From assembly GCA_965287045.1 (NCBI GenBank), contig OZ336877.1, positions 79,856,001 to 79,920,000 on the forward strand: 64,000 bases of DNA, given 5' to 3'. The DNA is from Carcharhinus amblyrhynchos. Lineage: Eukaryota. Positions 15,891 to 55,959 of the stretch are shown here, piece after piece; position 1 is the stretch's first letter; every line of letters starts with the position of its first letter. The notes under the pieces were generated by a model. That model was given only the letters and a program-made list of their open reading frames with translations, was not told where the DNA came from and searched no databases. The position numbers and the translations under genes are program-made.

Positions 15891-16754
15891 GGGGGTGATT
15901 CTCCCAGCCTGCTGAGCTGCCCGAGCAGGGCATTAGGCTGAGAGACATAATTGAAGGCCGTGTAGCAGGCTTCCCACTGGGCACCATGGCCTCTGCGCAT
16001 CTCTGGCTGCCGGATTTCTGGCATCATCAGCTCTGCGCCAGAAATCGGCATGGAGCTGATTAAAATATTTAACTCATTATTTAAATCTCATTAGTGGGTC
16101 TGGGACTGAACTCTCTGGGCCCACTAGTCTCTCCCCCACCGCCACCAGTGTTTCGCTCCAGTGGGGTTTACAACAACTCCCCACTAATGAGAAGCTGGCA
16201 GATGGACACCGCTGGAATGAAGGAGGCCATGGAGGCCCCCTCGGAGGTCGGGGCTAAGAGGGCTGCCCCCTAGACATTTCCACCTTGGCAGTACCAGCCT
16301 GGCCCCCAGCACTGCCCAGGGGCAAAGTGGCAATATCCAGGGGGCACCTTGTCAATGCCCACCGGGCATCGGACAGTACCAAGGGGGCAGGGCCAGAGGG
16401 GGAGCAGGGCTTATTGGGAGTGGGTCCTCTTGGGGCGATTGATGAGGGTGGGATATCCCACTGCCTCTCCACACTCGGGATCAGGGACAGAGGGAGGGTG
16501 GACAGCGATCTGGGCCGGCCATCAGGATTGGGGGGTGGGGTGAGGGGCAGCGGGAGTCGGGGCTGCTATGCTGCTGGCCTCTCCAGTGAGAATAAGTCAC
16601 GCCCCCAGCTTTTCATCATGATTCACACTCAGGCACTCTGTGATGCAGACTGTGGGAAATTCATTTTGAAAGTCGTGCTGAAAAAACAGAGTGATTTATT
16701 TCCGTTTTTACGTAAATTCAGCACTTAGAATGTTCTTTTGGGAGAATTCTACCT
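15891..16754 (+). mobile_element. Harbinger/PIF non-autonomous element, family A copy 1
   Basis: TIRs GGGGGTGATTCTCCC / GGGAGAATTCTACCT; 3-bp TSD AAT/AAT; homologous to 21914-22616 and 50306-51382. Confidence 0.85.
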
Positions 16755-21913: not shown

Positions 21914-22616
21914 GGGGGCGATTCTCCCAGCCCACTGTGCTGCTTTTGAGGCGCAGCAGGCCTGGAGACTCGAGCAGAGGCCATTTAGCAAGCTCCCTGC
22001 TCGGTACCATGACTTCTGGGCAATTCCGTCAGTCAGATTTCTGGTGCCAGAAATCGGCGCAGAGCTGCATAATTTACTTAAATCTCAATTTAAATGCAAT
22101 TTTAATATCATTAGCGGGTCCGGAACTGAAATCTCCTGGCCTGCTATCCTCTCCCCAGCCCCCCTCCCCACACACCAGAACTCCTTCACTCCAATGGGGT
22201 TTATAGTAGCTCCCTACTTGCGGGGAGCTGGTGGCCAAACCCCGCTGGGCATCTTTGGGGGGGGCCAGTGATTGGGCCATGGGAAAGACGCGTGACCAGT
22301 AATGCAGGGATCTTAGGGCTGGCCAGCGATCGAGCTGACCATCAATCGGAAGGTTTACAGTGTGGGCTACTGGGCATGCACCGAACTCGGCACTGACAGA
22401 TCAGTGCACGTACAGTGGCCTGCTCAGCATTATGCTGCCGGCCTTGCCAGCAGAAATAAGCTCCACCCACTGATTTTGAGTTTGATTCATGCCACTGCAC
22501 TCTGCAATGCACAGAGTGTGGGAGATTCATTTTGAAATTCCACTGAAAATAAGTGTGATTTACTTCAGTTTTTATTCAAATTTAACACTTAGAATTTTTT
22601 TGGGAGAATCGTCCCT
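21914..22616 (+). mobile_element. Harbinger/PIF non-autonomous element, family A copy 2
   Basis: TIRs GGGGGCGATTCTCCC / GGGAGAATCGTCCCT; TSD TCA/TCA. Confidence 0.88.
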
Positions 22617-49546: not shown

Positions 49547-50305
49547 GACGTAAAGCAGACTAAAGTAAAGTAAATGTAAAATCCTGTGGGCCACTATTTG
49601 CTCCTCACACAATTAATACTTCCTTCTCTGAGATTTTCCTAAGCAATTTGACGGGCCTGGTTTGTGTCCCCACTCCCGTCATACCTCTCGCTTTCAGTCC
49701 CTGTGGCGGGAAAAATTCAGCTCACTGTTTCTGGTTCATGATCTTTCATGAGATCATCCTAACGAACCTGACACATTAACGCTGTTTCTCATTCATCAGA
49801 AACTCCCCGACATCTGAGTATTTCCAGCATTCTCTATTTTTACTTTCTGACACTTAACTGCATTTGGATCAACAAAATAACTTTTGTATTCGATATGAAA
49901 TTTGCAATTGCTTGAGCCCTGGCATCATTTACCATTTTATTCATCTCTCCGAATCTCTGCCAACTGATATGCTCACTTCGTATCAGCTTTGGTGTTTTAC
50001 CAGATTGTAGCAAATCCTTTTCGTTGCAACTTTCTCCCATATTCATTCTCTGTCAAGTTCCCCAGACAACAGAAATTCCCAGGTGCCGTATCCAAATGAC
50101 CATTCTTCATTGGTAAGACTAAAATATTTTGTTATTTTTGACACACTTTGTCTTTCCAATGAAAAGACAAATCTGACCCATTGAAATTGCTGAGTTGACT
50201 GATACAGGTGAAAACTTATCTTTGGTATAATTTCAAGTCCATTGAGAAATGAAGAAATCTATCTTTTCAATCATGTTAACCATTAGTGTCTTAAGTTGAA
50301 ACAAT

Positions 50306-51382
50306 GGAAGCGACTCTCCCAGCCTGATGCACTGCTTTTGGAGCACAGCGGGCTGGGGGAGTCTAGCACTGCCATTTTGCAGGCTCTCTGCCGAGGCGCC
50401 ATGGGTTTCCACTTGTCTCCGGCAGCTGGATTTCTGGCACTGTCAGTCTGCAGCGGAAATCGGCGCAGGGCTGCATAAATTATTTTGGTATGAATTTTAA
50501 TATATTTGAATCTCATTCGCGGGCCAGGTTTGAAGTCTCTGGGCCAACTATCTTCCCCACCACCCCCACCAGAAGTATTTCATTGCAGCAGGGTTTAGTA
50601 CAACTCCCCACTTTCAGGGAGCTGGCAGCCTAACCCCGCTGGAATGAAGGAGGGGCAATTGAGGCCCCTCCCCCTGAGGGTCGGTTGCCAGCCGTGACCC
50701 CTGGAGCCTGGGCTCTCTGGCACTGCCCAATGGGCAAAGTGCCAATGCCCAGGGGGTATCTTGGTACTGCCCACCAGACATGGAGCAGTGCCAAGGGGGC
50801 AGGGTCTAATGGAGCTGCGGTCTGATGGGGCAGGGCCTCCGTGGCGGATCGGTGGGAGTGGGAGGGGGGTCCCGCTGCTACTCTGCATTTGGGCTGAGTG
50901 ACAGAGGGGGGGAGGACAGCGATTGGGGCTGGCCATGGAGGTGGGAGGCAGGGGGCAGTCAGAACTGCCCGTGGGGGAAGGAGGGGAACATCGAGGTGGG
51001 GTGGGGGGAGAGTTGAGGCTAGCCTGGACATGTTTGGGGGCTAGTGATTGGGCCATAGGGGGGTTGGAGAGGCAGTGTTGTGGGAGTCGGTCGTGGGGCT
51101 GGCCAGCGATCAGGGGGCCAGCAGACAGGGGCTAATGCACACGCGTTGATCGCAGCGCTGTCAAATCGGCGCATGCGCAGTGACCCACACAGCACTATGC
51201 TGCCGGCCTCTCCAGTGAGAACAGCCCCACCCACTAAATTTTAGAGTGAGTCACACTAATGCATTCTGCAGTGCACAGAGTGTGGGAAAGTCATTTGGAA
51301 ACTCCCGCTTAAAAGAAAGCGTGATTTACTCCAGTTTTTACGTGAATTCAACACTTAGAATCTTCCTGGGAGAATTGCAGCA
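50306..51382 (+). mobile_element. Harbinger/PIF non-autonomous element, family A copy 3 (longest)
   Basis: TIRs GGAAGCGACTCTCCC / GGGAGAATTGCAGCA; shares subterminal sequences (GGATTTCTGGC..GAAATCGGCGCAG; GTGATTTACTCCAGTTTTTAC..ACACTTAGAA) with copies 1 and 2. Confidence 0.85.
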
Positions 51383-52095
51383 CCCCCCCACTCCCCCCAC
51401 AACATCTGAATTCAACCATCAATGTTTCAAAATAAAAATTAGAGCATGAGACAGAAACTACTGTTAGTGATAACAACAGCATTATGAAAGCTGATAAATA
51501 TCTATGATAGTCCTCTGCCAAGTCTTTTACTGGGGATGAGTTATGGTAGTGCACAGAGGAATGGCATACATGCATCAACTGCTATTGTTATCCTCATGTA
51601 TTTTAGAGTTTTAAAAGCAAAGGATGCACAACAGGTTGGTCAACATCAACACGAGAAAATAACAGTACAATGGTTTGATTTGACCTTTTATTATTACCGA
51701 AGTTCAAGGATTTGGCATTATCTATCCTAATGTCACTTAAAAATAGAAATTCTTCACTTTACTTAATTAAATCAGTATATCGTGATTGTAGGTTCCCAAC
51801 CTTTGTACTTCACAGGATCTTGGCCTTTTTGTGCAATGATTATTGTAAATCTATGTACTCAAAGTTCACAAGTTCACATGGGATTACGTGAATGGAACAG
51901 AACCCAGCACAGCTGTACTGATGTCATTACAACTATTTTTACTTTCATAATTAAAATTTCTGTAATCTGTCTGGTAAACAAATTTTTGGCTTTGAAGGCT
52001 CCAAATTGAATGGACAGGTTGATTTTTCCCATCTTTGCATCTGCAGAATTCATATTCTCTGGGCAGAACGATGTAGAATAGGATGGAAACACATT

Positions 52096-52958
52096 GGGTC
52101 CAATTTTACCAAAAATTCGCTAAATTTGGGCGTCGGGCCTTTAACACGATCTGCACCTGAATCCGAGCAGATTGTGACTTTACCAATACCCGACTTGGGC
52201 GCGGATCTGGTGTGCGCCCGCATATGGTGGCCCGACGATTTAAATGCATTAGCATGCCTTTAAATCGATTTAATGAACTGCACGCCCAACTCTACATCCA
52301 AATCCCACTTTACCATCTTTGGGTCCGTTCTGGATCCACGCTGTAAGTGACCTGCAAAATAAAAATCTGAAGCTGACTTTTATTCTGCAGGGGAACCTCT
52401 GAAGCCCATCATCCTCGACCATCCTTCTCAGACCTCTGCTAACCACCCTAGCAGAACCCCCCCCGCTGGGATCAGACACTCCTGGGAGGCAGGCCCCATC
52501 TTGGCAGACGACCACACACCGCCCCCCCCCCCGCAAGGAGGCAGGCCCCCTCAGGAGACCCCCTCATGATCAGGCCCTCCCCGGGAGCAGGCACCCCCAG
52601 CAGACCCTCCCCCCACCTCTCCCCCGGATCAGACCCCCCTGGGAGGCAGGCCCCCTCAGCAGAGCACACCCCCAACCTACCTCGATCGCTGGTCTCCCTC
52701 CACCATCCTTCTTGACCATTTTCAGTCCTTTGAGAGCCTGCAGCACCTTCCTGGCCGCACACTCAGAGCCACGGCTAAAGTGACCGAGTTTCACACCATT
52801 CTGCTGGCATCCACCGGAGAAGGAGGGGGTTCAGATGGATCTCTGGTTGGACGAAGGAGGAGGGGCGCAGATGGATCTCTGGTTGGGGGGTAGGAGAGGG
52901 CGCAGATGGATCTCTGGTTGGGGGGGCAAGGGGATCCGCTGCCACTCTGCCGGCGATC
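52096..52958. mobile_element. Harbinger-type non-autonomous element (family B), right end missing, with internal tandem repeats and a captured gene fragment
   Basis: Left TIR-like GGGTCCAATTTTACC; CpG-rich subterminus; repeats GAGGCAGGCCCC (52486-52660) and CAGATGGATCTCTGGTTGG x3 (52832-52921). Confidence 0.7.
52705..52815 (-). pseudogene. RPS19: 40S ribosomal protein S19 coding fragment (pseudogenic)
   Basis: Translates [37 protein letters not shown]; 26/37 identical to human RPS19 [37 protein letters not shown] (sequence recalled from memory); no start codon or splice context. Confidence 0.9.
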
Positions 52959-53550
52959 CATTGACCCGAAACTGAACTGGACTAACCATAGAAATGCTGT
53001 GGCTACAAGAGCAGGTCAGTGGCTAGGAATGCTGCTGCAAGTAAGTCACCTCCTAACTCCCCAAAACCTATCCAACATCTATAAGGCACAAGTCAAACAT
53101 CTGATGGAATAGTCTCTACTTGCCTGGATGTGTGCAGCTCCAACAACAAAGATCAACACCACCCAGGACAAAACTACTTAACAGAAGCAGTATATATTAT
53201 ATCCAAGACGCACTGCAGCAACTCACCAAGGATCCTTCTTCAACACCTTCAAACCTGCAATCTTTGCTACTCAGAAAGACAAGGGCAGCAGATGCATGGG
53301 AATATCACTACCTGTAAGTTCCCTCCAAGCTGCATACCATCTTGACTTGGAACTATAATCACCAATCCTTCACAGTTGCTGGGTCAAAACCCTGGAACTT
53401 GCTTCCTAATAGCACTGTGAGAGTAAGTACGCACTATGGACTGCAGTAGTTTAAGAATTCAGCGCAGCACCACCTTCTCAAGATAAATTAGGAGTGGGTA
53501 ATAAATGCCAACCGAGCCAGCAACACCCCACACCCCACCAACAAATAAAA
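52959..53550 (+). mobile_element. Second CR1/L2-superfamily LINE lineage, 3' part
   Basis: IDPKLNWTNHRNAVATRAGQWLGMLLQVSHLLTPQNLSNIYKAQVKHLME; A-rich tail. Confidence 0.85.
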
Positions 53551-53807
53551 TTTAAAAAAAAACATGAATCTGTCCTACATGTTCCATACGCTGAGAGAAA
53601 GGGTGGGAGAAATTCCTTCTAATCTTAAATTGGCTAATTTTGTATTTATTGAAGCCAGAATTCTTTGGTTCAGGGAATGTTTCAGGCTCAGTCTATTATA
53701 TATTTAAGGGAAAATTCAATAAATATTTGAGCAGAGAAAAAAACTGCACCATGGGGAAAGGATCTATCAGTTGGATTAATTCTGTTTTAGCAAAGAGCTG
53801 ACACAAA

Positions 53808-53974: not shown

Positions 53975-54829
53975 ATACAATGCATTATAAACATGCATGA
54001 GTTCATAGTAATGTCCCTTTGATTCTCATAAAAAGTTTGTTTTTTTTCATATGTTACAAGTTGGAGCCTCATGTCACCTTGACTTTCTTTGATGAAAGGA
54101 AGTTTAGTTCTGTGAGCTGCTGTTCAGTTTTTTTAGAACTAAATCCTTGAATCATCCTCATTTTCTTCTCTGAATCCTCTCCTATGGATCAATCTTCTTT
54201 GGGTAGAAAGCCTTAAACAGCATATCATATTCCATAAATGAATCTGTTAACTATCTACACATGGTTATGACAACTTATAATCAAAGAAGGTGCATCCTTG
54301 CATATGGTCAGTTTTGTTGAATGCATCTTGACATGACTAGATACTTTGATGAAATAATTCCATTCCTTTTTCCTCTTTACTGACAGACACCTTCACATTT
54401 AGTACATACGCATGTTCTAAAGAACATAATTTTTTTCAAAAAATGGTTTCTTCCTTACCTCAGCATTGACTCCGTAGAGATGCAACTCCAGGATCACTGA
54501 TCACCTTCCAGTACCTCAGATAAGTGGCCAGAATTGATCAGTGAATTCTAACAATAGATGGTGATAGACTATTTAGTATAAGAACATCACAGCTGAGTCT
54601 ATTCCTGTCCTCGCCTAATGTACATACGTCTACCCTTCCAGCAATGCTTGCTAAAAGATAAAAGGCCTGCTTTTTTTCAGCACCTTTTACAGCTGTCAGA
54701 CAATGAAGTACAGTGCAGTACCACGGGAGTACTCGCTGTTGGAGGTGTAAGGACACAGAACATAGAGAAAAGAGCAGGAGTAGACAATATGTCCCCTAGG
54801 CTTGCTCTGCTGTTCACGCCATATCCTGC

Positions 54830-55825: not shown

Positions 55826-55959
55826 AAGCCTGAGGGGACATATGATCCACTCCTGCTCTTTTCTCTATGTTCTGTGTCCATACACGTCCAACAGCGCAGC
55901 ACTCCCTCAGTACTGCACCATAGCTTGTGGAATGCATAATTAATAACAAATTTCTAATA

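Follow-up and report, generated by a model that had tools for sequence, protein, structure and literature searches.

Several described systems invite comparison with the transposon family reported here. The closest precedent is found in bats, where Helitrons amplified retroposed mRNAs, in what was presented as the first such report for any DNA transposon, and where retrogenes are nested in HelibatN424 (RPLP0) and HelibatN22 (TACC3) (PMC4224331). These are rolling-circle elements; retrogenes both with and without TSDs are described, four cases carry the L1 hallmarks of poly(A) and TSD, and the copies number 118 in all (PMC4224331). Animal Pack-TIRs are non-autonomous TIR elements, PIF-Harbingers included, that hold host sequence and show microhomology at breakpoints; the survey that describes them lists only 4 multicopy Pack-TIRs in 100 genomes, the example having 3 copies, and it filtered out intron-less captures of multi-exon genes by design (PMC8277862). 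The elephant shark, its sole cartilaginous fish, had no Pack-TIRs (PMC8277862). In plants, Pack-PIF and other Pack-TYPE elements of the PIF/Harbinger superfamily form multi-copy clusters with cargo-defined subfamilies, mostly have TTA/TAA TSDs, and are modelled as acquiring DNA between neighbouring insertions; the word "intron" is absent from the text consulted (PMC8903248). Tailless retropseudogenes of therian mammals are 3'-truncated and lack poly(A), are driven by L1, were selected for TSDs, and are not amplified by DNA transposons (PMC5322556).

The shark family described here resembles the bat Helitrons in that spliced mRNA is amplified inside a DNA transposon, captures are serial, and a ribosomal-protein mRNA is among them (PMC4224331). 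Unlike the Helitrons, it is a cut-and-paste TIR element with no cargo TSD and with common fold-back hairpins, and three ribosomal-protein mRNAs are stacked in one 2- to 3-kb element. It shares with Pack-TIRs the host sequence held in a non-autonomous TIR element and the microhomology, and its copies, with distinct flanks and TSDs, show the amplification by transposition that is typical of Pack-TIR and Pack-TYPE elements. In the survey, however, Pack-TIR denotes DNA-level capture, from which the five spliced exon junctions of the shark family set it apart (PMC8277862). With plant Pack-PIFs the shark family has the superfamily, the multi-copy clusters and the cargo-defined subfamilies in common; TTA/TAA makes up 6 of its 30 perfect TSDs, in contrast to the plant elements. 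The RPS19 and RPL39 cargos are, like tailless retropseudogenes, 3'-truncated and without poly(A); compared with classical LINE-1 processed pseudogenes, the cargo matches in intron loss but not in a poly(A) tail or a TSD of its own.

An earlier note on this DNA had held gene capture to be rarely reported for vertebrate DNA transposons. This needs qualification, since Pack-Harbingers are already listed for vertebrates, with 37 PIF-Harbinger occurrences in Supplementary Data 1 of the animal survey (PMC8277862); the shark family stands out by its copy number, by the spliced origin of its cargo and by serial capture. RPS19, RPL39 and MRPL55 are absent from those supplements of the survey that were searched (PMC8277862), and the main text of two 2026 retrocopy surveys does not mention these genes or Harbingers under the terms searched. 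The openly accessible papers searched contain no account of the shark family, nor of a vertebrate TIR element that multiplied spliced cargo.

Results

The window is a 64,000-nucleotide stretch of the 2.92-Gb genome of Carcharhinus amblyrhynchos (location G000:C8). The Harbinger-style TIR reported in the earlier note begins at 52096 and is preceded by "att" (52093 to 52095, plus strand), a likely 3-bp TSD whose partner was lost with the right half of the element; ATT/AAT accounts for 5 of the 30 perfect TSDs of the family. The left TIR itself (52096 to 52112, plus strand) forms a sharp left boundary common to the copies and is the same in L184, L186, L188 and L191. The left subterminal region (52096 to 52405, plus strand) includes a short fold-back hairpin at about 52351 to 52392 and is 64 to 76% identical to autonomous left ends. 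An eroded second RPS19 piece (about c.330 to 359) was placed at about 52406 to 52430 (minus strand) by alignment to L071; its exon-5 part, to c.392, is deleted here and kept in subfamily A. GC-rich repeat modules of families D1 and D3 (52455 to 52699, plus strand) separate this piece from the main one (52700 to 52816, minus strand), which by alignment to the host comprises c.237 to 348, a 6-nt deletion, and the exon 4/5 junction between 52703 and 52702. A 35-bp tandem array follows (52816 to 52926, plus strand), with 3 copies here and many more in, for example, L015 and L028. The fragment does lie, as had been read, between two internal arrays, the GC-rich modules at 52469 to 52684 and the 35-bp repeats at 52819 to 52925.

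The stretch from 52927 to 52959 (plus strand) opens the segment that, in full-length copies, runs on to the RPL39 arm; it matches L033 and L041 up to 52959-52962 only, which marks the truncation point. At 52959 the copy ends against an unrelated, very high-copy repeat (52960 to 53560, plus strand; summed contig depth up to 1e5; 19 loci retrieved), which had no relevant Pfam match and which we take to be a LINE 3' end. A right end was sought without success throughout the window and in the 10 kb beyond each of its sides. The window copy is a left-half remnant of one family element.

The antisense stop-free stretch at 52705 to 52815 (minus strand) reproduced the claimed 37-residue translation exactly. 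Its identity as RPS19/eS19 was confirmed by PF01090 (E value, 6.8e-5) and by residues 80 to 116 of vertebrate eS19 chains (E value, 6e-11); the PF01090 score falls below the whole-protein cut-off because the sequence is a fragment. The piece is 86.6% identical to host RPS19 coding sequence over 112 nt (c.237 to 348). Past residue 116, and beyond the 6-nt deletion, the piece retains the final 2 nt of exon 4 joined to the initial 3 nt of exon 5; the end that the earlier note placed near the exon 4/5 boundary runs into the start of exon 5. No poly(A) or TSD of the fragment's own was seen on inspection of the window sequence, in agreement with the earlier reading. CpG decay was likewise evident: the piece differs from the host at 15 positions, 5 of them family-wide, and transitions at host or family-consensus CpGs make up 6 of the remaining 10, R82C, R84Q, E108K and E114K among them.

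A 141-nt query yielded 233 candidates in the genome, and all 40 of those scored matched, the other copies being 81 to 93% identical; a one-off retrocopy, with the fragment missing from other copies, was not what these counts returned. Family copies share one sharp left boundary and have differing flanks, and complete copies carry 15- to 17-bp TIRs at both ends, with the right end 1.4 to 4 kb from the left. Nearly all distinct full RPS19 pieces (53/55) have an element left end no more than 1.2 kb away. Exact matches to a 19-nt cargo/element junction numbered 35 in the genome (control, 0), and a right-end sequence pattern occurred 101 times (control, 0). The 19-nt junction is preserved exactly by 20 of the 54 known copies and by 4 of 19 copies found by other queries, from which we estimate roughly 95 to 165 loci, including a subfamily with an internally deleted RPS19 piece. 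The RPS19 fragment is therefore the cargo of a multi-copy non-autonomous Harbinger family.

Two-ended elements were called by a strict rule, with one row a mis-paired duplicate and some ends possibly mis-called; in the 48 elements so called, the 3-bp TSD was perfect in 30, had one mismatch in 8, and had more in 10. Shuffling gave a mean of 2.7 and a maximum of 8 perfect TSDs in 2,000 shuffles. Perfect TSDs were present in 19 of the 28 RPS19-bearing two-ended elements. The 30 perfect TSDs were ATA/TAT (9), TAA/TTA (6), AAT/ATT (5), AAA/TTT (4), TCA/TGA (3) and others (3), an A/T-rich target preference broader than TTA/TAA (TWA). Thus, with copies counted across the assembly, the fragment suspected to be multi-copy is so, at different loci with their own 3-bp TSDs, and the TIRs, the TSDs and ends common to transposase-bearing elements bear out the assignment to a non-autonomous Harbinger-type element.

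A PF13359 profile search of the genome gave 5,893 candidates, of which 150 were scored; TIR-like matches were present in 11 of 30 retrieved loci. L184 (5.5 kb), L186, L188 and L191 are complete elements with the same TIR as the family and their own 3-bp TSDs, and L184 encodes a transposase domain (PF13359, DDE_Tnp_4; E value, 3e-33). Over longer matches, family ends are about 64 to 76% identical to the ends of autonomous elements. Harbingers are defined by TIRs, a transposase gene and a Myb/SANT gene (PMC9392472). PF13837 (Myb/SANT) matched weakly in L192 only (E value, 0.032), with no match in the frameshifted L184, L187, L189 and L218/L235. A tree was made from both element ends (53 rows; 4 duplicate or mis-called rows dropped, 3 autonomous elements added) and rooted on L191. 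The pack elements formed one clade (support, 99), with the partly coding L235 as sister (support, 100). This 3.1-kb element (also retrieved as L218; G000:C6:20.34 Mb) is a deletion derivative that keeps autonomous internal sequence. The spread of the pack family was likely driven by the transposase of related autonomous Harbingers. L235/L218 also holds an insert of about 900 bp of its own, and an E1_UFD match in L218 (E value, 0.0014) was set aside for want of support from PDB. Several transposase candidates (e.g., L154, L155, L161 and L173) have open frames of 400 to 700 codons and may be domesticated genes or young elements.

The host RPS19 gene lies on C54; its coding exons measure 71, 101, 184 and 55 nt, a last exon follows, and intron 4 spans 4,571 bp. 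Among 52 matches to the main RPS19 piece, 41 continue with the end of exon 4 and the start of exon 5, and none continues with the intron. Subfamily A holds the second piece in fuller form (c.330 to 392), and in 22 of 23 distinct exon-5 pieces the end of exon 4 lies directly upstream, with the 4,571-bp intron missing. Alignment to host gene and mRNA, with the junction present and the intron absent, settles at the sequence level the choice between DNA and RNA origin that had been left open, and shows that the cargo passed through mRNA. Of the capture originally proposed, the multi-copy capture stands; since the cargo is spliced, gap repair that simply copied the RPS19 gene can be excluded. The microhomology-flanked 6-nt deletion is common to both RPS19 pieces, which suggests one capture, later split by a short duplication. 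The RPS19 cargo reads from the right end inward in every case (28/28).

Four genomic RPS19 retrocopies (L051, L053, L060 and L242) were considered as donors and rejected, as none has the 6-nt deletion of the cargo. They and the RPL39 retrocopies L104, L110, L147 and L148 are ordinary processed pseudogenes, most ending in poly(A). No convincing TSD was found at the three RPS19 retrocopies checked, and L053 is split by a 400-bp repeat insertion. In L055/L064, an internal copy of right-end sequence of about 135 bp lies between the two RPS19 pieces.

The first reading covered only the smallest part of the element, to which full copies add spliced RPL39 and MRPL55 and three further cargos. Full-length copies of the window's subfamily carry RPL39 (PF00832; E value, 6e-16) and MRPL55 (PF09776; E value, 3e-18), so that host-gene sequence from three parents, RPS19 (C54), RPL39 (C11) and MRPL55 (C9), lies between the TIRs, with five exon-exon junctions spliced in the three genes. 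No element-end match was found in the RPL39 and MRPL55 host stretches, on C11 and C9, respectively. The RPL39 cargo begins with 22 nt of exon 1 and reaches partway into the 3' untranslated region (UTR); one of its two exon junctions is spliced in 66/67 arms and the other in 67/73. PF00832 matched 100 of 150 scored candidates, a number that includes both hairpin arms and a few ordinary retrocopies. RPL39 is present in both orientations, as a fold-back, in 14 of 24 complete elements, and a 690-nt stretch of L033 folds into the RPL39 hairpin with 303 pairs. An uninterrupted frame between ATG and stop survives in 20 of 71 arms, and the consensus has three residue changes. Unusually similar arms within one element were found in 2 of 18 elements, L021 and L105, where the two arms have private changes in common; this suggests recent homogenisation or re-folding.

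The MRPL55 cargo starts directly behind the ATG, extends to the likely poly(A) site, and joins three host exons separated by 3.7 and 4.4 kb. Of 70 loose-motif matches, 49 had the exon 2/3 join and the other 21 were unrelated sequence; the exon 1/2 join was present in 50 copies, in a search that required the exon-2 motif and so leaves misses uncounted. PF09776 matched 73 of 85 candidates. An element end lay beside the MRPL55 match at all 25 loci checked, among which no stand-alone MRPL55 retrocopy was found, and beside 63 of 65 distinct pieces overall. Orientation was uniform (23/23 from the right end inward), none of 47 copies retains the ATG, which was lost at the junction, and the cargo has an 18-nt deletion flanked by microhomology. 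It ends just behind a poly(A)-type signal, merging with the A tract of the element; copies without MRPL55 show the empty site, and comparison with them places the cargo between a 4-nt match and the A tract and reveals neither a target duplication nor a clear loss. No cargo had a TSD, and an A tract was found only at MRPL55, where it runs into that of the element. For RPS19 and RPL39, copies with an empty site were not recognised.

Read inward from the right TIR, the element consists of MRPL55, a 35-bp array, RPL39, the main RPS19 piece, the GC-rich modules, the second RPS19 piece, and the left end. Other subfamilies carry the non-coding cargos X, Y and Z, which had no Pfam match, no Rfam match in 5 loci, and consensus frames full of stops. 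Cargo X gave 32 candidates, all scored and part of them inspected, among which no donor was recognised; L138, considered as a spliced host-gene source, is a broken element copy with nested insertions. Cargo Y, at about 6 loci, is 88% identical to one unspliced locus (L142:4483-5099; G000:C13:1.49 Mb), which lacks element ends and is a candidate donor. Cargo Z (about 510 to 550 bp) is usually folded back into an inverted repeat; among 40 scored of 126 candidates no donor was found, and PDB sequences gave no meaningful match. Members of the cargo Z subfamily include L203, L208, L209, L270, L273, L276 and L277. At G000:C9:83.9-85.6 Mb (L227-L232, L234), a tandem segmental cluster comprises about 20 half-elements that carry cargo Z, are nearly identical, have one flank in common and lie tens of kilobases apart. 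An otherwise cargo-free copy has an insert of about 230 bp (L212:1870-2110) with no Pfam match.

In the tree, copies with RPL39 and RPS19 branch below the MRPL55 clade (support, 99) and the Z clade (support, 94), and non-CpG divergence from consensus is 6.3% for RPS19, 3.8% for RPL39 and 4.0% for MRPL55. Tree and divergence agree on a probable capture order of RPS19, then RPL39, then MRPL55, with weak deep nodes: the order depends on short branches with supports of 69 to 99 and a root placement of 44. That root placement concerns the cargo-free members, several of which keep a short match to the RPL39 5' UTR, a hint that they may be deletion products and not ancestors.

All 30 bins of the L033 element were covered by contigs from runs of four other organisms (A, B, D and E), and contigs of runs X5, X6 and X12 bridged the right-end/MRPL55 junction. 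The window flank/TIR junction was bridged by contigs of runs X1, X5 and X8, and this insertion therefore predates the split from organisms A and D; run X12 had no contig across the junction, which is no evidence of absence. Cargo pN/pS was 0.97, 0.78 (RPL39) and 1.13, and the RPL39 value is not read as selection because its sample was partly picked by Pfam score. These values agree with the neutral ageing proposed earlier: the cargo decays neutrally. With pN/pS of 0.78 to 1.13 and MRPL55 without its ATG, neither the purifying selection nor the intact start of a functional retrogene was found, and the sequences give no sign of a host function.

Discussion

That this is a Harbinger family whose cargo had a spliced origin we regard as close to certain. 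As to how the cargo arrived, we consider it probable that RPS19, RPL39 and MRPL55 mRNAs were reverse transcribed directly into successive master copies, which then transposed. RPS19 (c.237 to 392) would have been captured first, then undergone the 6-nt deletion and a short internal duplication that split the piece in two; RPL39, from 22 nt of exon 1 into the 3' UTR, would have come second and later been folded back; and MRPL55 would have been inserted third, between the 4-nt match and the A-rich tract. A LINE-type reverse transcriptase, primed on short microhomology at a nick or break in the element, could have left no TSD, and the loaded master copies would then have spread by cut-and-paste transposition. 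This direct RNA route is favoured because all three identified gene cargos are spliced, abundant housekeeping mRNAs, because RPS19 and MRPL55 each occur in one orientation, because MRPL55 joins the element A tract without target duplication, and because no stand-alone MRPL55 retrocopy was found at 25 loci checked and none of four RPS19 retrocopies had the 6-nt deletion. Against it, both the RPS19 and the RPL39 cargo are truncated at either end, with neither TSD nor poly(A), unlike standard retro-insertions. Those same properties would suit breaks in or at the element, from excision or hairpin cleavage, that were repaired on mRNA or cDNA by microhomology-mediated end joining and also produced the fold-backs. 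Deletions bordered by microhomology, of 6 nt in RPS19 and of 18 nt in MRPL55, and the repeated folding-back of RPL39 and cargo Z fit such repair equally well, and sequence alone cannot separate it from a TSD-less LINE insertion; yet this genome also makes ordinary RPS19 and RPL39 retrocopies that have poly(A) and no clear TSD, so that known machinery suffices, and we judge break repair quite improbable.

Existing processed pseudogenes might instead have supplied the spliced cargo at the DNA level, a master copy taking it up through gap repair or a template switch and then being amplified by transposition. Gap filling is the main Pack-TIR route (PMC8277862), microhomology without TSD at the cargo ends is in keeping with it, and cargo Y matches a contiguous locus without element ends. 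For RPL39, a stand-alone poly(A) processed pseudogene, L151 (G000:C8:20.535 Mb), has a derived non-CpG change at c.109 that is also found in 68 of 73 cargo arms and is absent from 4 other retrocopies. DNA-level copying is thus possible for RPL39, with L151 as a possible donor or convertant. However, this is a single shared site, for which chance or conversion was roughly estimated at 5 to 10%, and L151 lacks the c.13 and c.61 changes of the cargo. No donor was found for RPS19 (4 retrocopies) or MRPL55 (25 loci checked), and retrocopies make up a tiny share of the genome, which would make three undirected DNA captures improbable; copying from pseudogenes is, in our estimate, unlikely as the general route. 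A single retrocopy fragment inserted into a repeat, or spread by segmental duplication, has in its favour the flank common to L020/L037 and L049 and the tandem cluster of cargo Z on C9. For the family it is refuted by the match of every scored candidate, by different flanks and TSDs on many contigs, and by the 35 exact junctions against a control of 0, and we give it almost no weight. Direct reverse transcription into master copies thus remains the preferred reading. A more general but doubtful proposal is that this Harbinger lineage acts as a recurrent mRNA trap, in which breaks from excision or hairpins would be patched with RNA-derived sequence through microhomology, abundant germline mRNAs being added serially and multiplied about a hundredfold.

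Because a few captures were copied to roughly a hundred places, many apparent pseudogenes in this genome stem from few events; one MRPL55 capture accounts for about 70 family-search matches. The family joins two routes of gene duplication, retrocopying and transposon capture, that surveys treat apart. Judging from their described methods, retrocopy pipelines that require an exon junction could count such copies as separate retrotranspositions or mask them. The unusual top parental genes of cartilaginous-fish retrocopies in a recent report (10.64898/2026.06.26.734816) may hypothetically share this cause. The family also offers dozens of dated junctions for the question of RNA-templated repair at DNA-transposon sites in the vertebrate germline.

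In the element right end, about 165 to 185 bp from the TIR and just upstream of the sense cargo, a GCGCATGCGC-type palindrome lies in CpG-rich sequence. It may be an NRF1-like site, and the region is a possible promoter. If transcribed from the right end, the folded-back RPL39 arms would form long double-stranded RNA against an essential ribosomal gene.

The window also holds three copies (15891 to 16748, 21914 to 22609 and 50305 to 51376) of a second, unrelated TIR family, presumably Harbinger-like, with ends like GGGGGCGATTCTCCC; these are 68 to 77% alike and carry no RPS19 cargo. A 90-bp inverted pair (54713 to 54803 and 55826 to 55918; 88 to 92% complementary) encloses a 1-kb stretch that includes a LINE-like piece.
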